This document shows, one piece after another, positions 3,693 to 53,538 of a DNA stretch of 53,575 nt. The translations under genes and the position numbers were made by a program. Each line of letters begins with the position of its first letter. The stretch's first letter is position 1. The DNA is from a virus, in the IMG/VR virus record IMGVR_UViG_3300009285_000009, positions 1-53,575 of that record, one strand, 5' to 3'. Under the pieces are notes generated by a model. The model was not told where the DNA came from and did not search any database. It saw only the letters and a program-made list of their open reading frames with translations.

Positions 3693-4292
3693 ATGCCGAA
3701 GAAGATAAAAGCAAGGAAGAAGCCCTACGTAAGCGTAGCAGTAATACCGCCCATAGAAGAACGCAAGAAATGGCAAAGGGTTAATTGGGATACTGTAGCA
3801 TCAGCATATATTACCCGTGATGATTTGCCATCATATGATTACTTGGCTAAGGAATTCGGTATCCACGTAAGCAGTATGCAACGGGTAGCCCACAGAGAAG
3901 ATTGGATAACCCAGAGGAAGATATATTGGGAAAAGGTGGGCATAAAGATGCAGGAAAAGGCAAGCAATAAAGTAGCCGAAATGCGTGCTAAGAATATAGT
4001 TATAGCAAATAAGGCGTTAGAGTATCTGGGGGAATTATTACAGAATAAGTCATTGAATGGGTCTATTAGTGATATAGATAAGATTATCCGCACAATAGAA
4101 TACCTGAATGGCAATCCTGATAGCAGACCTGATGGCGGTGGCTCATTTGAAGAATTCCTTAAACGATTAAATGCTGAACGCAGGAAGGCATATAAGGATT
4201 CAATGGGAGTGAATAATGTGATTGATGTTACGGTAAGCAAAGGGGAAGACGATGATACTGGTAAAAGACCTGATAAGCCAGATAACAAATAG
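3693..4292 (+). CDS. terminase small subunit candidate
   Basis: Basic N-terminus, HTH-like YDYLAKEFGIHVSSMQRVAHRE, acidic tail; positioned upstream of the large terminase; positional call only. Confidence 0.5.
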   Translation: MPKKIKARKKPYVSVAVIPPIEERKKWQRVNWDTVASAYITRDDLPSYDYLAKEFGIHVSSMQRVAHREDWITQRKIYWEKVGIKMQEKASNKVAEMRAKNIVIANKALEYLGELLQNKSLNGSISDIDKIIRTIEYLNGNPDSRPDGGGSFEEFLKRLNAERRKAYKDSMGVNNVIDVTVSKGEDDDTGKRPDKPDNK

Positions 4293-4500
4293 GGCGGTAG
4301 GGTATATACCGTGCTTTGATGAATGGCTTCTGGCACATAAGGGTAAGCCGTTAGCCATAAGGCATAGTGTGATTAATAGGGTAAAGGATTGTATATGTGT
4401 TGCCGAGGTATATACGATAATCTGTAGTTGCAATGAATGCGGTGATGAATATACGGTGATATTGGAGTATAAAATAAATAATAATCCTATAAATACTTGA
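4252..4500 (+). CDS. hypothetical Cys-rich 82-aa protein
   Basis: ATG 4252 after aagggga RBS; overlaps previous gene by 41 nt; CICVAEV..CSCNECGDEY. Confidence 0.35.
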   Translation: MILVKDLISQITNRAVGYIPCFDEWLLAHKGKPLAIRHSVINRVKDCICVAEVYTIICSCNECGDEYTVILEYKINNNPINT

Positions 4501-4524
4501 CAAAACTAAAAATAAGTATAATAT
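4497..4524 (+). promoter_or_regulatory. sigma70-like promoter P0 (TTGACA-16 nt-TAATAT)
   Basis: -35 TTGACA 4497..4502, -10 TAATAT 4519..4524; upstream AATAAT..ACTTGACAA resembles the early-promoter box. Confidence 0.5.
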
Positions 4525-4527
4525 GGG

Positions 4528-4640
4528 TATTATGAGAGCAATGGGTATAACAGAAATAAAAATAAATCAAAGGGGGCGTGGTGCATTTCCTGTATCACAC
4601 AGAAAAACCTATTGCTCTCACAATAAGTAACCACGCTCCC
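4528..4640 (+). ncRNA. structured 5' leader with interleaved stems (pseudoknot-like), copy 1
   Basis: S1 4528..4542 pairs with 4611..4625 (14 bp, 1 mismatch). S2 4572..4582, inside the S1 loop, pairs with 4630..4640 (11 bp, one G-U). 4-nt junction. Confidence 0.45.
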
Positions 4641-4665
4641 ATTATCACTGAAAGGACACATATAT

Positions 4666-6369
4666 ATGATAGAATCCTTAACTTCCGAGCAGGAATTAAA
4701 ATTAAAAGAATACGAGGATAAGTGGACGGCAATCGGTCTGGATACTACGCAGTTTAATGAATCTATCGCAAGACCGATTATCAATAATTTGTATACCGAG
4801 ATATTAGATTACCCTAAAAACCCATTTTTATATATTGCCGAATCCCCGATAGAGGCGTGGTTTGCAGTGATGTTTTTGTATTCTATAATTGAGGACGCTA
4901 AGGTCTGGGATAAGGTCGGGGATAAGGTCGGGGCTAAGGTCGGGGCTAAGGTCAGGGCTAAGGTCGAGGCTAAGGTCAGGGATAAGGTCAGGGATAAGGT
5001 CGGGGATAAGGTCTGGGCTAAGGTCAGGGATAAGGTCGGGGATAAGGTCTGGGCTAAGGTCTGGGATAAGGTCAGGGATAAGGTCGGGGATAAGGTCTGG
5101 GCTAAGGTCTGGGATAAGGTCAGGGCTAAGGTCGGGGATAAGGTCAGGGCTAAGGTCTGGGCTAAGGTCGAGGCTAAGGTCGGGGATAAGGTCAGGGCTA
5201 AGGTCGAGGCTAAGGTCAGGGATAAGGTCAGGGATAAGGTCGGGGATAAGGTCTGGGCTAAGGTCAGGGATAAGGTCGGGGATAAGGTCTGGGCTAAGGT
5301 CTGGGATAAGGTCAGGGATAAGGTCGGGGATAAGGTCTGGGCTAAGGTCTGGGATAAGGTCAGGGCTAAGGTCGGGGATAAGGTCAGGGCTAAGGTCTGG
5401 GCTAAGGTCGAGGCTAAGGTCGGGGATAAGGTCAGGGCTAAGGTCGAGGCTAAGGTCAGGGATAAGGTCAGGGATAAGGTCGGGGATAAGGTCTGGGCTA
5501 AGGTCAGGGATAAGGTCGAGGCTAAGGTCAGGGATAAGGTCAGGGATAAGGTCGGGGATAAGGTCTGGGATAAGGTCTGGGCTAAGGTCAGGGCTAAGGT
5601 CTGGGCTAAGGTCGAGGCTAAGGTCGGGGATAAGGTCAGGGATAAGGTCTGGGATAAGGTCAGGGATAAGGTCGGGGATAAGGTCTGGGCTAAGGTCAGG
5701 GATAAGGTCGGGGATAAGGTCGAGGCTACTTTACCAAATTTTATATACCCCAACATAGATGGGAATTTCTCAGTAAATTATTTTGCTTTTTATGATTTTA
5801 TGCAGGAAGTAATTGGTGTTGAAATATATAATCTCGTAGGGTTATATAATATATACAAGGATACGACTAAATTATCGTTAATTTATCCCTTTGAGGATTG
5901 GTGTGTTGTATGCCAGAAGCCAACAATTATTAATCTTAAAAATAATGAACTTCACAAAGACGGAGGAATGGCTTTAGAATATAGCGATGGTTTTGGATTG
6001 TGGTGTCTTAACGGAACATCTGTAAGTCAAGAAATTGCAGAAACTCCGGCAGAGAAATTACCAGCCACTTTAGTATTGTCTGAAAAAAACGCAGAAGTTC
6101 GGCGTGAGATAGTCAGGAAAATAGGTATAGAGAGGGTCTGCAAAGACCTTAACTCCAAGATTATAGATACAGGAATAGACCATAAGGGCAACTTATGTGA
6201 ATTGCTTGTGCTTGATATTGGGGACGGCAGACAAAGACCATTTATCAAACTGGTAAATCCAAGTATCGGATGTTATCATATAGAGGGGGTGCATCCTGAT
6301 TGTGACACGATTGAAAAAGCATTTAACTTCAGGAATGGAACAATAGAAAAACCAATTTTATTAACTTAA
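4666..6369 (+). CDS. DUF6745-like protein carrying a 69-unit [D/A]-K-V-[G/R/W/E] tetrapeptide array
   Basis: aaagga RBS. N-terminal LTSEQELKLKEYEDKWTAIGLDTT; C-terminal LHKDGGMALEYSDGFGLWCLNG...NAEVRREIVRKIGIERVC, recalled from the bacterial DUF6745 family. Central perfect tetrapeptide periodicity. Confidence 0.85.
   Translation: MIESLTSEQELKLKEYEDKWTAIGLDTTQFNESIARPIINNLYTEILDYPKNPFLYIAESPIEAWFAVMFLYSIIEDAKVWDKVGDKVGAKVGAKVRAKVEAKVRDKVRDKVGDKVWAKVRDKVGDKVWAKVWDKVRDKVGDKVWAKVWDKVRAKVGDKVRAKVWAKVEAKVGDKVRAKVEAKVRDKVRDKVGDKVWAKVRDKVGDKVWAKVWDKVRDKVGDKVWAKVWDKVRAKVGDKVRAKVWAKVEAKVGDKVRAKVEAKVRDKVRDKVGDKVWAKVRDKVEAKVRDKVRDKVGDKVWDKVWAKVRAKVWAKVEAKVGDKVRDKVWDKVRDKVGDKVWAKVRDKVGDKVEATLPNFIYPNIDGNFSVNYFAFYDFMQEVIGVEIYNLVGLYNIYKDTTKLSLIYPFEDWCVVCQKPTIINLKNNELHKDGGMALEYSDGFGLWCLNGTSVSQEIAETPAEKLPATLVLSEKNAEVRREIVRKIGIERVCKDLNSKIIDTGIDHKGNLCELLVLDIGDGRQRPFIKLVNPSIGCYHIEGVHPDCDTIEKAFNFRNGTIEKPILLT
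4897..5724. repeat. 69 tandem copies of the 12-mer G[A/C]TAAGGTC[G/A/T][G/A]G with a 240-nt higher-order unit
   Basis: 828 nt / 12 = 69 units. 4947..5278 is identical to 5187..5518 (offset 240). All three forward/reverse frames are open as a consequence. Confidence 0.95.
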
Positions 6370-6385
6370 AAGAAAGGGGTATAAA

Positions 6386-6685
6386 ATGTTATACCAACAA
6401 GGCGATGTGATTTTGGAGACGGTGGAAATGATACCGGAAAACCTTAAAACCCATAATGGCGTAATCGCAGAGGGTGAAACTACCGGACACGCCCATCGGG
6501 TGGATTTGAGCGGAGTGGATGTATTCGTGGCTGATGATGGAACTCTTTATTGTGAGGCGATGAAAGAGTTTACCATAACCCACGAGGAACATAAACCCAT
6601 TACCTTGCCGAAGGGAAAATATAAGGTTCGTAAGGTGCTGGAATATGACCACTTTGCGGAGGAGGCAAGAGTGGTAAGGGATTAA
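6386..6685 (+). CDS. conserved small phage protein (QGDV...GETTGHAH motif), function unknown
   Basis: aaagggg RBS; 99 aa; the QQGDVIL and GETTGHAHRV pattern is common in phage hypothetical proteins (recalled). Confidence 0.7.
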   Translation: MLYQQGDVILETVEMIPENLKTHNGVIAEGETTGHAHRVDLSGVDVFVADDGTLYCEAMKEFTITHEEHKPITLPKGKYKVRKVLEYDHFAEEARVVRD

Positions 6686-6695
6686 AAAGTGGTGT

Positions 6696-8306
6696 ATGTT
6701 TAAGTTACCAGAATTAACAACGCCGATTGATTACCGCACATTAGGAAAATACGAAGATATATTCAAACGCCCGGCAAGGTATATCCAGAAATTCCTATGG
6801 ATTAAGAATAAGCATTCTGATATTATACCGTTTTTCTTTAATTCTACACAAGTAAGATACCGGCGGATGAAGCGGATAGAATTAGCAAAGGTCAGGGTTG
6901 TTAACCCTTACGCTAAACCGCATTACCTGGTGCTTAAATATAGGCAGGGCGGAATCACCACAGAGGAACAGGGTGAGAATTTTCATCTCATAGCAACAAA
7001 GGAAAACCAGAATTGCATAACACTGGCGCACGATAAGAAGACAACCGAAGAAATATTTGATATAGCCCAGTTATTTGACCGCAACCTTACGCCCGAAATA
7101 AGACCTAAACGGGACTGGGATAATAAGTCAGAGATAGAATATAAGGGGCTTAATTCCAAGTTTCATATCGGCACAGCGGGTAATACGAGTTTTGGCCGTG
7201 GGCAAACATTCCAAAGGGTTCATCTATCTGAAGTGCCGCTTTATGGCAGGAAAAAGCATCAACATACCATCAGCATATCTGACATACAGAATCTAATATC
7301 AGGCATACTCAGGGCGTGTCCTTATGGCGATGTGGTGGCAGAGGGGACAGGCCAGGGCGCAAAGGGGTGGTTTTATCAGACCTGGAATGAGGCGAAAAAG
7401 AGTAAGTGCCGAAATGGATGGATACCGATATTCCTGCCGTGGTTTATTGACCCACTGAATAGTATGCCATTATTATCCGGCGAGGATATAGAATATACCG
7501 ATGAGGAAAAGATATTAATCAGTAGGGCGAAGGAAAATTATGGCGTAGATATGAAACCGGAACAAATTAAATGGCGCAGGTTTATGAAAGAAGAGGAAAA
7601 ACTCTTTGACCAGGAATTCCCGGAGGACGATATTACGGCCTTTATGGTCTCCGGTTCATCCAAGTTTGATATGTTGATATTAAGGGATTTGGTTAAGGAT
7701 TGCGCCAATCCGGTTGAAGAAAAGATACTTGACGGCGGTAGTTTACTTCAGTGGGTTAAGCCGATAGCCGGTAGGCGGTATGTTATAGGCGCAGATGTAG
7801 GCGAGGGGCTGGCTAATTCTGATTACTCAACTGGGACGGTGCTGGATTACGAGACCTGCGAGCAGGTAGCCCGGCTAATGGGGCGATGGAAGCCGGAAGT
7901 ATTCGGGGTTAAACTGGCTAACCTGGGATTGATGTATAACAAGGCATTGATTGGAGTAGAGGCGAATAACCACGGACATAGCACTCTGAATACTTTGCTA
8001 AATACTTTACACTATCCACGATTATATTATCATAAGAACTATGACAATACTGGCGGCCAACAACTGGGCTGGCAGACCAATGCCAAGACGAGGGATTTAT
8101 TGATAGGCGAACTAAAAACAGCCATAGAAGAATACCTAATGAAAATAAATGATACAGAATTTATTGACCAGTGTATGACATTTCAGGATGATGGGACAGG
8201 CAAGTATCAGGCAGAAGAAGGTTGCTTTGACGATTTGGTTCTGGCATATGCAATTGCTTGGCAACTGCGAAAAGTCCACGGCATAAGTCCGAGAATAACC
8301 ACATAG
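6696..8306 (+). CDS. terL: terminase large subunit
   Basis: 536 aa; ATPase-type KYRQGGITTEEQ segment, LSEVPLYG, C-terminal nuclease-like IGADVGEG and FDDLVLAYAIA. Confidence 0.85.
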   Translation: MFKLPELTTPIDYRTLGKYEDIFKRPARYIQKFLWIKNKHSDIIPFFFNSTQVRYRRMKRIELAKVRVVNPYAKPHYLVLKYRQGGITTEEQGENFHLIATKENQNCITLAHDKKTTEEIFDIAQLFDRNLTPEIRPKRDWDNKSEIEYKGLNSKFHIGTAGNTSFGRGQTFQRVHLSEVPLYGRKKHQHTISISDIQNLISGILRACPYGDVVAEGTGQGAKGWFYQTWNEAKKSKCRNGWIPIFLPWFIDPLNSMPLLSGEDIEYTDEEKILISRAKENYGVDMKPEQIKWRRFMKEEEKLFDQEFPEDDITAFMVSGSSKFDMLILRDLVKDCANPVEEKILDGGSLLQWVKPIAGRRYVIGADVGEGLANSDYSTGTVLDYETCEQVARLMGRWKPEVFGVKLANLGLMYNKALIGVEANNHGHSTLNTLLNTLHYPRLYYHKNYDNTGGQQLGWQTNAKTRDLLIGELKTAIEEYLMKINDTEFIDQCMTFQDDGTGKYQAEEGCFDDLVLAYAIAWQLRKVHGISPRITT

Positions 8307-42117: not shown

Positions 42118-42161
42118 AATAATATTATTTTACTTGACAATTTGTCAAGAATGGTTATAGT
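42118..42161 (+). promoter_or_regulatory. early promoter P1 with 23-nt conserved box and palindromic -35 region
   Basis: Box AATAATATTATTTTACTTGACAA 42118..42140; -35 TTGACA 42134..42139; -10 TATAGT 42156..42161 (16-nt spacer); palindrome TTGACAATTTGTCAA 42134..42148. Confidence 0.6.
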
Positions 42162-42230
42162 ATACAGTAGAAGCGGGGAAGATGAAAGCCCGAAGCAAAA
42201 CAGTAACATCCTGAAAGGGGGTGATTTTAG

Positions 42231-42443
42231 ATGGACTATACAAAAATGCCTGTGGCAATAGTAGGATTCCCGTATAGCAGAACAGAGGAGGGCAAAGGAA
42301 CGCTAAAGGCGATTAGTTGGGCAGAAGGTAATGACTTACCGGAATATGGAACAAGAATGAAGGATTACTCTGGCACTACTTGGTTGATTTTAGGTGTAGA
42401 TGAAAAACATCGGATAGTAACAATGGTGTCTTGCGTTAAATAA
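42231..42443 (+). CDS. hypothetical early protein
   Basis: aaggggg RBS; 70 aa. Confidence 0.55.
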   Translation: MDYTKMPVAIVGFPYSRTEEGKGTLKAISWAEGNDLPEYGTRMKDYSGTTWLILGVDEKHRIVTMVSCVK

Positions 42444-42552
42444 CCGCCTCCTAACTTGGGGCGGACGGCTTGAATGCTCATCTCAAGCCGGAGGGTTGAT
42501 AATTAATGAGCGATTAGAAACCGCCGGGGGTGGCGAGAGGGTCACCCCCGGC
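42444..42552 (+). other. three consecutive GC-rich hairpins
   Basis: 42444..42464 (CCGCCTC/GGGGCGG), 42466..42490 (CGGCTTGA/TCAAGCCG), 42523..42552 (GCCGGGGGTG/CACCCCCGGC); no U-tracts. Confidence 0.4.
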
Positions 42553-42591
42553 ATCCGGCTAACAGAATGAATTAAGAAAGAAGGAGAGAAT

Positions 42592-48595: not shown

Positions 48596-48623
48596 TTGAC
48601 AAATAATACTATTATCCTATAAT
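48596..48623 (+). promoter_or_regulatory. promoter P3 (TTGACA-16 nt-TATAAT)
   Basis: Consensus hexamers at 48596..48601 and 48618..48623. Confidence 0.65.
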
Positions 48624-48629
48624 GACGGA

Positions 48630-48738
48630 TGTGAATGAAATGAGTAATAATCTTAAACAGATAATCAGCAGGGATAGGGCAGGAAGCAGGTCAATTTATT
48701 GCTTGTTTCATTCACACTGTTCTATACCCTGCTTTTTT
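48630..48738 (+). ncRNA. interleaved-stem structured RNA ending in a U-tract, copy 2 (leader or discrete small RNA)
   Basis: S1 48630..48650 pairs with 48696..48716 (21 bp, 3 G-U). S2 48667..48677 pairs with 48722..48733 (11 bp, one bulge). TTTTTT run spans 48733..48738. Confidence 0.5.
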
Positions 48739-48745
48739 ATTTAAT

Positions 48746-49399
48746 ATGCCACAAAAGGTATTTCCCGATTCAAGGGGCAAGGCCAGTATAAGTCAATGCC
48801 TAATGTGTGGGAAAAATATTAGAATAATACCGGCCATGGTAAGACAGGAAAAAGGTAAGTTTTGTTCCCGCAAATGTGTGTGGCAATGGAGTTCTAAAAA
48901 TAGGAGTGGGATAAATAGTCCTGGATGGAAGAGGCAACTAAGGCAATGTAAGGAATGCGGCAATAATTTTTATGCCCTTATCTCACAGATTAAAATAGGG
49001 AGCGGTAAATTCTGTTCAAGAAAATGTAAAGGGAAGGGACAAATAAAAAGATTAATAGGTAATAGATATGGATGGAAGGGTGGCTTAACTCCGGCAAGCA
49101 CATTAATCCGTTCTTCAGATAAATACAAAAATTGGCGTTCACAAGTATTCATCAGGGATAACTTTACCTGTCAGAAATGCGGAGATAGTACAGGTGGAAA
49201 TTTAGAAGCACATCATAAACGAGGATTTAGAATATTAATGAGGGAGGCACACGAATATATGCCCTTGTTCTCATTATATGCCGCTTGTATGATTTATGCC
49301 CCGCTATGGGATATTAACAATGGTAAGACACTTTGTAAAAAATGCCACGATGAAACGAGAGGAAGCATTTATGCCAGAAGAAAATATAACGATAGATGA
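48746..49399 (+). CDS. HNH homing endonuclease
   Basis: KYKNWRSQVFIRDNFTCQKCG..LEAHH..PLFSLYAACMIYAPLWDINNGKTLCKKCH; two GKFCSRKC zinc-knuckle repeats; no SD upstream. Confidence 0.85.
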   Translation: MPQKVFPDSRGKASISQCLMCGKNIRIIPAMVRQEKGKFCSRKCVWQWSSKNRSGINSPGWKRQLRQCKECGNNFYALISQIKIGSGKFCSRKCKGKGQIKRLIGNRYGWKGGLTPASTLIRSSDKYKNWRSQVFIRDNFTCQKCGDSTGGNLEAHHKRGFRILMREAHEYMPLFSLYAACMIYAPLWDINNGKTLCKKCHDETRGSIYARRKYNDR

Positions 49400-50681: not shown

Positions 50682-50708
50682 TTGACAAACATTTTAATAT
50701 AATATATC
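50682..50708 (+). promoter_or_regulatory. promoter P5 (TTGACA, -10 ambiguous)
   Basis: TTGACA 50682..50687; AT-rich TATATC 50703..50708 at 15-nt spacing; weaker than P3. Confidence 0.4.
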
Positions 50709-50717
50709 CTAATTTTA

Positions 50718-50829
50718 TGACAAGGATATACGGCGTAACAGTACACTCAATGAGGCGGGGAAGCAATTCGTCTAAACAACCATTTGCTATATGTCCTTGT
50801 CAGACACCTCGCCTCACTTTTCTTATTTT
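50718..50829 (+). ncRNA. interleaved-stem structured RNA ending in a U-rich tract, copy 3
   Basis: S1 50718..50730 pairs with 50790..50802 (13 bp, one G-U). S2 50751..50760 pairs with 50807..50816 (10 bp, one G-U). Followed by CTTTTCTTATTTT. Confidence 0.45.
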
Positions 50830-51414
50830 ATGAGAGAAATTATCACCATAGTGGCATATAAGCAATTCGTTAAGAGCAACACCGATAATGCTATTACTCT
50901 TCACGGCACATCTATCAGGGCTGATATGGGATATAGGGCTTTATCGCCTATGGCTAAATTAATGTTTTTTAACGCTCTATTAATATCTAATAAAGACGGA
51001 AAGTTATACCATACATTCTCTGACAACCCATACACCGCAGAAGAATTAATTAGGTCTGTAAGTAGTCATAACAATCGCAACGATTTATTAGGTAAGGCAT
51101 TTTTAGAATTGATACATTATGGGCTAATTCATTCCAATATTAAATATGACAGGGTTAGTAAAATCGCACACGATAAATATTCTACAGATTGGACTGAAGA
51201 TTTAAGAATGGCTGTTAGAAAAAGGGACGGTTATAAATGCAGAGTATGCAGTAAAGACGGTATACAGGTGCATCATATTGATTATAATAAATCTAATTGC
51301 GACCCTGGAAATCTCGTTACATTATGCTCCCGATGTCATAACAAAACAAACATCCGGCGTGAGTATTGGAAGAAATATTTTACAGAAAGAAAAGATAATG
51401 CCAGACATTATTAA
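50830..51414 (+). CDS. HNH endonuclease with N-terminal putative DNA-binding domain
   Basis: YKCRVCSKDGIQVHHIDYNKSNCDPGNLVTLCSRCHNKT; track start 50791 lies inside stem S1, and ATG 50830 follows the U-tract as at 48746. Confidence 0.7.
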   Translation: MREIITIVAYKQFVKSNTDNAITLHGTSIRADMGYRALSPMAKLMFFNALLISNKDGKLYHTFSDNPYTAEELIRSVSSHNNRNDLLGKAFLELIHYGLIHSNIKYDRVSKIAHDKYSTDWTEDLRMAVRKRDGYKCRVCSKDGIQVHHIDYNKSNCDPGNLVTLCSRCHNKTNIRREYWKKYFTERKDNARHY

Positions 51415-52246: not shown

Positions 52247-52876
52247 ATGGATATAAATCAATATAAAGATAGCAGGAAACCGCTTAAAAAGGTTTTGACT
52301 ATACCGCCCAGATTTGAAGGCACTGCATTAGAGATAGACAATCAATGGTGTAAGGATTGGGTATTGCAGGCGGTTAATGGCAGGGTAAAGAAATCACCTA
52401 TGCTTGCCGGGGCGACCGGGGTAGGGAAAACATATCAGTTGTATGCAATGGCAAACGAAATATGCAATATAGTTAATCAGCGTAATATAGACGAATGGAA
52501 TAAAATAATTGATTATACTTCGCCTGTTTACAAATATCCCCGGATGAAAATAATAACTGAAGTTGATTTATTTTATCGGATGCGGGAAGCCCCAAATCAG
52601 CAGGCGGAATGGCATCTGCTTAAAGATATAAGAACTATTGATATTTTATTGATTGATGACATTGGAACTGCTAATGCCGGTAATAAGGCATTAGAGACAT
52701 TATTTAATATATTAGATTGGCGGGGTAAAAACTGTTTGGCAACAGTTATAACTACCAATATGACTATTCAAGAAATAGCACAGGGGTATGGTGAAAAAAT
52801 AGCAAGTAGGATTATAGAAATGTGTAAGGTTATTATTATGAACGGTGAGGATTACAGGGTTAAAGATAACATATGA
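52247..52876 (+). CDS. DnaC/IstB-like AAA+ helicase loader
   Basis: Walker A GATGVGKT; Walker B LLIDDIG; follows the organiser gene. Confidence 0.8.
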   Translation: MDINQYKDSRKPLKKVLTIPPRFEGTALEIDNQWCKDWVLQAVNGRVKKSPMLAGATGVGKTYQLYAMANEICNIVNQRNIDEWNKIIDYTSPVYKYPRMKIITEVDLFYRMREAPNQQAEWHLLKDIRTIDILLIDDIGTANAGNKALETLFNILDWRGKNCLATVITTNMTIQEIAQGYGEKIASRIIEMCKVIIMNGEDYRVKDNI

Positions 52877-53538
52877 TAAAAAGATGCCCCATTTGTAACA
52901 AGAAAATTAGTAATAGGGCAAAGTATTGCTGGAAGCATTGTCACACCAAAGAATGGCGTGAGAAGAACGGAACAATTCATAGGAAACCTAATACACACAG
53001 ATTTTGTAAATCCTGTAATAAAAGGATAGATAGTCGTTCGGAATATTGTGCCATTCATTACAGGGAATATTCCGATTGGATTAAGAACCAGAGTAAGTCA
53101 CATATGGGGAAAACCCCCCGATTGGGAATGAAGCATACAGATAAAACAAAAAATAAAATTCGTGCGAAACAATTAGGTAGAAAATATTCAGTTGAAATTA
53201 ATAGAAAAAAGGGCTCTAAGGGAAATAGAAATCCTAATTGGAAGGGAGGGATAACAACCACCATTCAATTACTTAGACAGTGCGTGCAATACAAAAAATG
53301 GCGACAAGATATATTTATAAGGGATAACTTTACTTGTTGTGAGTGTGGGCAAAAAGGCGGATATTTAGAAGCCCATCACATAAAATTATTTAGTAAGTTA
53401 GTGCAGGAAGCAAGAAATTATATGCCATTATTCCCATTATATGACGCTTGTATGCTTTATACGCCATTATGGGATATTGATAATGGGATAACTTTATGTA
53501 AAAAGTGTCACGACAAAACTAAAAGAAAATCTATGTGA
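52873..53538 (+). CDS. HNH homing endonuclease
   Basis: ATGA overlap; NUMOD3-like GMKHTDKTKNKI; KKWRQDIFIRDNFTCCECG..LEAHH..PLFPLYDACMLYTPLWDIDNGITLCKKCH; its last 40 nt are repeated at 1..40. Confidence 0.85.
   Translation: MIKRCPICNKKISNRAKYCWKHCHTKEWREKNGTIHRKPNTHRFCKSCNKRIDSRSEYCAIHYREYSDWIKNQSKSHMGKTPRLGMKHTDKTKNKIRAKQLGRKYSVEINRKKGSKGNRNPNWKGGITTTIQLLRQCVQYKKWRQDIFIRDNFTCCECGQKGGYLEAHHIKLFSKLVQEARNYMPLFPLYDACMLYTPLWDIDNGITLCKKCHDKTKRKSM

Follow-up and report, generated by a model that had tools for sequence, protein, structure and literature searches.

A repeated leader of two interleaved helices ahead of three unrelated add-on genes in an uncultivated phage

The E. coli pyrBI leader is an intrinsic-terminator attenuator with a leader open reading frame (ORF) that runs through the terminator, and in T4 I-TevI and Aeh1 mobE a simple hairpin hides the ribosome-binding site, in addition to a late promoter. 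The nearest known repeated promoter-plus-stem cassettes are the promoter-early stem-loop (PeSL) cassettes of T4-like phages, in which about 100 base pairs (bp) are conserved and a stem-loop lies between, overlaps or adjoins the −35 and −10 boxes (PMC2839356). In type III toxin–antitoxin and AbiF modules, a terminator sets the ratio of RNA to protein (PMC5086642, PMC12373285). Described here is a leader element that occurs three times in the 53,575-nucleotide (nt) contig IMGVR_UViG_3300009285_000009, the genome of an uncultivated phage from groundwater metagenomes with all genes on the + strand; the whole contig is referred to below as the window. Located directly after a predicted TTGACA promoter in each case, the leader would fold, as RNA of the + strand, into two interlocked helices, S1 and S2, ahead of an add-on gene. 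Copy 1 precedes a gene with a long repeat array, which we refer to as the array gene, and copies 2 and 3 precede the HNH endonuclease genes HNH-1 and HNH-2. The leader is a statistically solid and previously undescribed design of the structured leader or attenuator kind, confined so far to this one uncultivated phage.

The order of elements in copies 2 and 3, namely promoter, leader ORF, GC-rich hairpin with a T-tract inside the ORF, and gene, is that of pyrBI-type attenuators. Unlike those, the leader lacks an antiterminator that would compete with the terminator for the same bases; here the 5′ end pairs into a loop of the terminator, copy 1 has no terminator at all, and the start of the leader ORF would be leaderless. 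To our knowledge, no described type of attenuator pairs its 5′ end into a loop within a terminator hairpin. Shared with I-TevI and mobE would be the restraint of a selfish nuclease by RNA structure at the translation start, together with dedicated promoters; we know of no pseudoknot, terminator or repeated design described for these two genes.

In common with PeSL elements, the locus has a repeated cassette with a strong sigma-70-like promoter, an AT-rich stretch upstream of it and a stem made of a G-run and a C-run, placed before accessory phage genes (PMC2839356, PMC4122927). PeSL elements, however, are single stem-loops at the promoter boxes, their approximately 100 bp are conserved as a recombination site, and the stem stops transcription arriving from upstream (PMC2839356, PMC4122927), whereas here two interleaved helices lie 5–115 nt past the −10 box, the sequence is barely conserved and the genome is lambdoid in style; the leader falls outside the PeSL definition. 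As in type III toxin–antitoxin and AbiF/RCd22 modules, structured RNA (there the ToxI pseudoknot) and a terminator are interposed between a promoter and a potentially toxic gene (PMC5086642, PMC12373285), but the leaders contain neither tandem RNA repeats nor an abiF motif (Rfam negative), there is no ToxN- or AbiF-family protein, and the cargo is HNH or DUF6745.

Interleaved helices behind three predicted promoters

All pairs of ungapped interleaved stems within 150 nt were scanned across the whole window and scored by the sum of their stem scores. On the + strand the three leaders occupy ranks 1–3 (scores of 66, 65 and 59), with the next site at 55; the best score in 40 dinucleotide-preserving shuffles of the whole window is 57, none of the 40 reaching 59. 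Serving as decoys were 117 IMG/VR regions, the matches listed for a degenerate pattern of the promoter core and a few shared short motifs; among these listed regions the best interleaved score beside a promoter is 42, and none has the fold. Other partners for the S1 and S2 arms were sought across the window and none was found. The scan ranks, shuffles and decoys establish that the interleaved design is real and confined in this genome to three sites behind promoters. A preliminary description of the window, made from its letters alone, had proposed three copies of one design, and this is borne out: each copy directly follows a TTGACA-type promoter, and neither the shuffles nor the listed decoys reach the leader scores.

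Out of 80 paired positions in the core helices, 73 are Watson–Crick and six are G·U on the + strand, and the remaining one, an A·C, corresponds to G·U on the − strand. Scan scores are also higher on the + than on the − strand in every copy (66/62, 65/48 and 59/51). The 6:1 asymmetry in G·U pairs and the higher + strand scores identify the sense-strand RNA as the folded species, rather than a DNA feature or an antisense transcript, and point to selection acting on the + strand RNA.

Each promoter matches the consensus at 10 to 12 of 12 positions. The 5′ arm of S1 (S1a) begins 4–7 nt past the −10 box and makes up the first 11–19 bases of the predicted transcript, and the arms follow one another in the order S1a–S2a–S1b–S2b in all three copies, which is the order of a pseudoknot. 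Although both of the interleaved stems first noticed are real, the folds are better described as a GC-rich hairpin with a small upper hairpin, in which S2 is the base and S1b is a 3′-side internal loop that captures the 5′ end of the transcript. Separating S1b from S2b are only 0–4 nt, so that S1 and S2 could stack as a rod of 23–30 bp (the combined helices amount to 30, 27 and 23 bp in copies 1, 2 and 3). The pseudoknot loops of copy 1 are 25 and 24 nt long for 19 + 11 bp; loop lengths are sufficient for a pseudoknot in copies 1 and 3 and, by geometric estimate, would be tight in copy 2 at full helix length.

The helix sequences are fully different between the copies, with pairing maintained in all three. 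The leader sequences resemble one another weakly, with z-scores of 3.0 (copies 1 and 3), 1.8 (copies 1 and 2) and 0.0 (copies 2 and 3), and an alignment of the copies with MAFFT left the arms out of register. By eye, short motifs recur at matching places: besides TTGACAAA and an ATG that marks the predicted start, the first loop has AACAG and S1b opens with AAYYWWTTGCT. The ATG lies 6–8 nt past the −10 box in all three copies (4532, 48629 and 50717), and running through each copy is a leader ORF that the preliminary description had missed. Leader ORFs this long occur in 15% (copy 1), 8–11% (copy 2) and 16% (copy 3) of shuffles, and jointly at about 0.003; because each length is reached in 8–16% of shuffles, the pattern is only suggestive.

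Computed as two nested states, S1 and the hairpin are of similar energy within each copy, with values of −28.1 and −26.4 kcal/mol in copy 1, −24.9 and −33.9 kcal/mol in copy 2, and −26.9 and −23.5 kcal/mol in copy 3. In the S1-state folds of copies 1 and 3, S2a is held by a local hairpin, H. Stepwise folding of the growing transcript gives S1 as the minimum-energy structure once S1b exists and before S2b is made.

Copy 1, like the features described below, is on the + strand. Its predicted promoter (4497–4524) is composed of a −35 box TTGACA (4497–4502), a 16-nt spacer and a −10 box TAATAT (4519–4524), with 10 of 12 consensus matches in a promoter scan of the window. Upstream of the −35 box is an AT-rich stretch (4471–4496), and within the box sits the TGA stop (4498–4500) of the preceding ORF of 82 amino acids (aa); a second −10 candidate, TATAAT (4517–4522), would have a spacer of just 14 nt. 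The pattern TTGAC[AT]-N14-19-TAnnnT occurs at five sites in the window, four of which, the copy 1 promoter among them, are intergenic.

S1a of copy 1 (4528–4546) begins at the predicted transcription start (approximately 4529–4532). The core of S1 pairs 4528–4542 (TATTATGAGAGCAAT) with 4611–4625 (ATTGCTCTCACAATA) at 14 of 15 positions, the exception being an A·C at 4532/4621; beyond this core, which had been noted earlier as 14 bp with one mismatch, the helix extends to 19 positions (4528–4546 with 4607–4625; 17 Watson–Crick, one G·U and one A·C) with a duplex energy of −22.7 kcal/mol. Residing in the 3′-side internal loop of the S2 hairpin, S1b (4607–4625) carries the motif AACCTATTGCT, which by eye is common to copies 2 and 3. 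S2 is formed by S2a (GGGGGCGTGGT, 4572–4582), within the S1 loop, and S2b (ACCACGCTCCC, 4630–4640), 4 nt 3′ of S1b across the junction AGTA (4626–4629); its 11 pairs comprise ten Watson–Crick and one G·U (duplex energy of −21.2 kcal/mol). In the minimum-energy folds, hairpin H (4578–4598, GTGGTGCA with TGTATCAC) and S2 compete for S2a. After S2 comes ATTATCACTG and no T-tract, so that copy 1 lacks the GC stem plus T run of an intrinsic terminator, and a Shine–Dalgarno-like AAAGGA (4651–4656) lies 9 nt 5′ of the ATG at 4666. The first reading of this copy had placed the promoter (there P0), S1, S2, the 4-nt junction and ATG 4666 correctly throughout, and was also right in finding no U-tract and a normal ribosome-binding site. 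The leader ORF (4532–4629, 32 codons) opens with an ATG at the predicted 5′ end and closes with TAA (4627–4629) in the junction, immediately 5′ of S2b. In copy 1, TGCTCTCACAA could be read as boxA-like, but this reading was rejected because copies 2 and 3 contain no match.

Copy 2 (48596–48745) lies ahead of the HNH-1 ATG at 48746. Its predicted promoter (TTGACA-16-TATAAT, 48596–48623) matches the consensus at 12 of 12 positions. S1 consists of 11 Watson–Crick pairs (48630–48640 with 48706–48716), and the lower stem of S2 consists of 16 pairs with one bulge (48667–48682 with 48717–48733). Above it is an upper stem (48683–48690 with 48702–48709) whose 3′ strand carries a bulge of 7 nt, ATTCACA; this bulge and four upper-stem bases pair with the transcript 5′ end. 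Following position 48733 is a T-tract (TTTTTTATTT, 48734–48742), completing the features of an intrinsic terminator. The first ATG (48629) is directly followed by TGA, and the leader ORF runs from GTG 48631 or ATG 48640 to TAA 48744 (34–37 codons), stopping 1 nt before the HNH ATG.

Copy 3 (50682–50829) lies ahead of the HNH-2 ATG at 50830, behind a predicted promoter TTGACA-17-TATCCT (50682–50710). Its S1 pairs 50718–50730 with 50790–50802 and its S2 pairs 50751–50760 with 50807–50816; it also has a hairpin H (50753–50759 with 50767–50773) and an upper hairpin (50762–50766 with 50784–50788). A T-rich tract (CTTTTCTTATTTT, 50818–50829) after 50816 again supplies the terminator feature, and the leader ORF (ATG 50717 to TGA 50833, 38 codons) overlaps the HNH start as ATGA. 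In both HNH copies the T-tracts reach start codons that have no Shine–Dalgarno sequence, with S2 lying 8–13 nt before the start; neighbouring genes carry GGAG-type ribosome-binding sites. The helices of copy 1 are the strongest, but no T-tract follows them and the gene has a ribosome-binding site of its own. Inspection of the promoter leaders at 42134 and 45303 showed that they are not further copies.

Cargo genes and genome context

The array gene (4666–6369) encodes a 567-aa protein composed of an N-terminal domain, a repeat array and a C-terminal DUF6745 domain with more than 250 homologues. The array comprises 68.7 copies of a 12-nt unit, [D/A]KV[G/R/W/E] (4899–5722), and represents an unusual expansion, as DUF6745 homologues are 200–375 aa long. 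A public assembly contig with copy 1 stops about 36 nt into the array (window 4899–4936), so the array length in the window depends on the assembly of repeats. Downstream of the array gene is a 99-aa partner ORF (6386–6685), and TerL begins at 6696. Similarly to window 4666–6685, an ORF of about 100 aa lies 10–16 nt downstream of the DUF6745 genes of two other contigs (L146, 2501–3902; L148, 3001–4332), that is, in two of the three homologous loci examined, which suggests that the two genes form a conserved module.

HNH-1 (48746–49399, phrog_1271) is of the homing-endonuclease type; among its more than 100 homologues, many combine NUMOD3 and HNH domains as homing endonucleases do. HNH-2 (50830–51414) is an orphan sequence, next to which are the O-like and DnaC-like replication genes; neither start has a Shine–Dalgarno sequence. 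A public gene call (L140 344) starts HNH-1 at ATG 48836 (187 aa); the start at 48746 is preferred because the later one removes the CxxC that pairs with a later CxxxC. HNH-1 and HNH-2 have nothing in common but the HNH motif, and the array gene encodes a DUF6745 protein, in agreement with the earlier view that the element is linked to unrelated cargo; the small proteins upstream of the three copies are also unrelated to one another. Two of the copies had been called HNH-linked, and the genes behind them are indeed HNH endonucleases, but the label is a loose one, as only two of the five HNH genes in the 53.6-kb genome (40157–40696, 41247–41837, 48746–49399, 50830–51414 and 52873–53538) carry the leader. 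The gene at 52873–53538 and HNH-1 both match one HNH gene in a related contig, L014. A scan for defence systems with PADLOC returned generic HNH similarity only.

The leader is absent from the homologues examined for two of its cargo genes, HNH-1 and the array gene. Full-length HNH-1 homologues that were examined sit tight against the preceding gene, and each of the three DUF6745 homologues examined either overlaps its upstream gene or follows it after 76 nt. We conclude that the leader is a property of this phage genome rather than of its cargo. Searches of the whole window with the Rfam 15 covariance models matched no family at the gathering threshold, and at E ≤ 10 gave chance matches to microRNA and small-RNA models only, far below threshold; a search for tRNA and tmRNA found none. 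Both leader regions are without a blastn match among 50,697 phage records. A search with TerL in IMG/VR and the JGI metagenomes retrieved just two contigs, at 60% identity and neither with the leader. Searches of IMG/VR with the Cas4-like exonuclease and HNH-1 returned no relatives, and with HNH-2 only distant HNH domains, and TerL and portal searches of GTDB genomes returned no prophage relative. Public runs contain no sequence variants, every run being identical, and one freshwater run shares only 4281–4470.

The layout of the genome is lambdoid-like. A switch region near 42134 and the Cas4-like exonuclease are followed by copy 2 with HNH-1, a helix-turn-helix gene, copy 3 with HNH-2, the O-like and DnaC-like replication genes and a third HNH gene, and then, across the contig ends, by RusA, a methyltransferase and a TerS-like gene, after which come a small zinc-ribbon-like ORF, copy 1 with the array gene, the 99-aa ORF and TerL. 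In the nearest relative, contig L013, which is a distant one (60% identity in TerL), the homologue of the TerS-like gene (3693–4292) adjoins TerL, and window 4293–6695 is therefore extra with respect to L013. The preliminary description had taken the array gene for an independently transcribed moron inside the late region. In agreement with this, it resembles a lambdoid moron in being an extra gene with its own predicted promoter between conserved late genes, absent from the nearest relative; unlike a moron, it has no downstream terminator, and it shares the strand of the operon, with which it is continuous. Neither 6370–6385 nor 6686–6695 contains a hairpin with a T-tract, so a transcript from copy 1 would continue into TerL, and owing to the missing terminator the strict definition of a moron does not apply.

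The 82-aa ORF upstream of copy 1 (4252–4500) has CxxC-type motifs and overlaps the end of the TerS-like gene. A 190-nt island (4281–4470) is about 95–97% identical to freshwater metagenome contigs that otherwise share almost nothing with the phage, and this identity ends at 4470, 27 nt 5′ of the copy 1 −35 box. At the switch region, a palindrome (TTGACAATTTGTCAA, 42119–42163) with face-to-face promoter-like sites on both strands (11/12 matches each) resembles an operator or genetic switch where the early region begins. Following the ORF at 42231–42443 is a GC-rich, 150-nt spacer (42444–42590) with strong hairpins (CCGCCTC/GGGGCGG, GGCTTGA/TCAAGCC and GCCGGGGGTG/CACCCCCGGC), in which CCTCC...GGAGG could form alternative pairings.

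In L014 (186–2837), the TerL ORF is 883 aa long, and the parts corresponding to window TerL residues 21–310 and 312–535 flank an in-frame insertion of about 1.08 kb that looks like an intein. In L013 (13007–13200), a TTGACA promoter, a leader of about 150 nt and a strong T-tract terminator lie directly before the portal homologue; this leader is not interleaved, and the sequence GTTCGGA, present twice, could allow a classic choice between antiterminator and terminator. Another feature of L013 is an array of tandem repeats of about 33 nt each (CGGCTTGGGCTGAGTATAAGAAGATTCAGCAAC, 1823–2066), located about 8 kb upstream of TerL.

Possible roles of the leader

The leader may act in cis as a 5′ leader or attenuator, in an mRNA transcribed from a sigma-70-type promoter of its own, with three paralogous copies in the phage. 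We assign this reading a probability of about 0.5; as such, the leader probably throttles three add-on genes. From the sequence we infer a transcription start, an order of folding in vivo, termination and functional consequences as follows. Since S1b is made before S2b, S1 would form first and tie the 5′ end of the transcript onto the hairpin, and S2b, emerging 0–4 nt later, could pair only as a pseudoknot or by displacing S1 and hairpin H. In the HNH copies, owing to the T-tract after S2 and the start without a Shine–Dalgarno sequence, most transcripts would stop as an RNA of about 105 nt and those reading through would be poorly translated. This would keep a potentially harmful nuclease low, and would fit the restraint of selfish nucleases by phages. 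Copy 1, which has no T-tract, would be unable to terminate and is most likely to act post-transcriptionally, by protecting the 5′ end or by tuning translation of the array gene and its 99-aa partner. The leader ORF, extending from the predicted 5′ end through the fold, may have a role in opening the structure.

Several points weigh against an attenuator. A promoter followed immediately by a terminator, as in copies 2 and 3, would equally fit a small-RNA gene, and as copy 1 has no terminator, one mechanism cannot cover all three copies. S1 might either favour or impede S2. The z-scores of ordinary minimum-energy folds are modest (−2.2, −3.7 and −2.0 for copies 1, 2 and 3), because nested folding cannot count both helices. 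The metatranscriptomes of the source study hold no reads or contigs from this phage. Variants and orthologous leaders were sought and none was found, so that covariation is available only between the three paralogues.

The leader ORFs raise the possibility, which we hold tentatively, of ribosome-gated attenuation resembling that of pyrBI. An early ribosome on the 5′ AUG would trail the polymerase and prevent S1 and S2 from closing, resulting in read-through and in termination–reinitiation at the HNH start; otherwise the fold would close, hide the AUG and terminate transcription. Consistent with such gating are the ATG found 6–8 nt past the −10 box in all three copies, the ORFs of 32, 34–37 and 38 codons that span the fold (jointly about 0.003 in shuffles), the end of the copy 2 ORF 1 nt before the HNH ATG, the ATGA overlap in copy 3 and the HNH starts without Shine–Dalgarno sequences. 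The 5′ ATG of copy 2, however, is directly followed by TGA, so that the long ORF needs GTG 48631 or ATG 48640; other frames are largely open too, the peptides are not conserved, the copy 1 ORF ends 37 nt before an array gene with its own ribosome-binding site, and the pattern was noticed after the fact. Short terminated phage transcripts acting as regulators are known, and the copies could instead be stand-alone small-RNA genes, each a promoter, about 105 nt and a terminator, yielding an abundant RNA protected by the pairing of both ends; the HNH genes would have landed behind them, and copy 1 would have lost its terminator or be processed. The 12/12 promoter of copy 2, its long hairpin with T6 and the fact that the leader does not travel with its cargo are all as expected of such genes, which we nevertheless consider rather unlikely, though a serious rival for copies 2 and 3: the copy with the best-kept helices, copy 1, lacks a terminator, a single-stranded seed region is not apparent, and the starts without Shine–Dalgarno sequences 8–13 nt from the hairpin, with leader-ORF stops on them, argue for a functional link to the cargo.

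The short junction (0–4 nt) and combined helices of 30, 27 and 23 bp would also allow S1 and S2 to stack as a near-continuous duplex of 23–30 bp that is cut by host RNase III, setting mRNA stability or translation. Phage leaders with RNase III sites are well known, but stacking across the pseudoknot junction is an assumption and the T-tracts of copies 2 and 3 would remain unexplained, which makes this role improbable. Cis antitermination of the kind mediated by HK022 put, in which the fold would modify the polymerase to ignore downstream terminators and copy 1 would license the late operon, is more improbable still; the structure is repeated after strong promoters in one genome with its shape and not its sequence kept, and copy 1 heads TerL and the structural genes with no terminator between, but put consists of two side-by-side stem-loops that are not interleaved, and copies 2 and 3 contain their own terminator within the element. 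A feature of the DNA without an RNA role, such as inverted repeats derived from insertion or protein-binding sites, or simple chance, might be considered given that the elements lie at the borders of inserted genes and that the match to another phage's contig breaks off at window position 4470, 27 nt 5′ of the −35 box. Such an origin is effectively excluded: no shuffle or listed decoy reaches the leader scores, G·U pairs are distributed 6 to 1 between the strands, the window contains no other copies of the arms, and the arms vary in sequence from copy to copy, so that one protein could not recognise them all.

Beyond a cis-acting attenuator of three genes, the leader could exemplify a new class of phage riboregulator, although we regard this as doubtful. 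In such a class, a leaderless-type start at the 5′ end would be captured by a loop in a hairpin or terminator, and the pseudoknot would shut off transcription as well as translation of selfish or accessory genes, except where a ribosome loads while about the first 80 nt are being made; the resident genome would impose it on incoming genes rather than gain it along with them.

Phage genomes are full of selfish nucleases and other add-on genes, and how these are expressed harmlessly is little understood outside T4. Comprising three copies in one uncultivated phage, with a mechanism that we infer, the case described here has one compact RNA design put to three uses in a single genome, on unrelated cargo. 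As the same cargo genes occur elsewhere without the leader, it is suggested that the resident genome supplies the control element. If true, the leader would be a simple and portable way to gate transcription and translation together.

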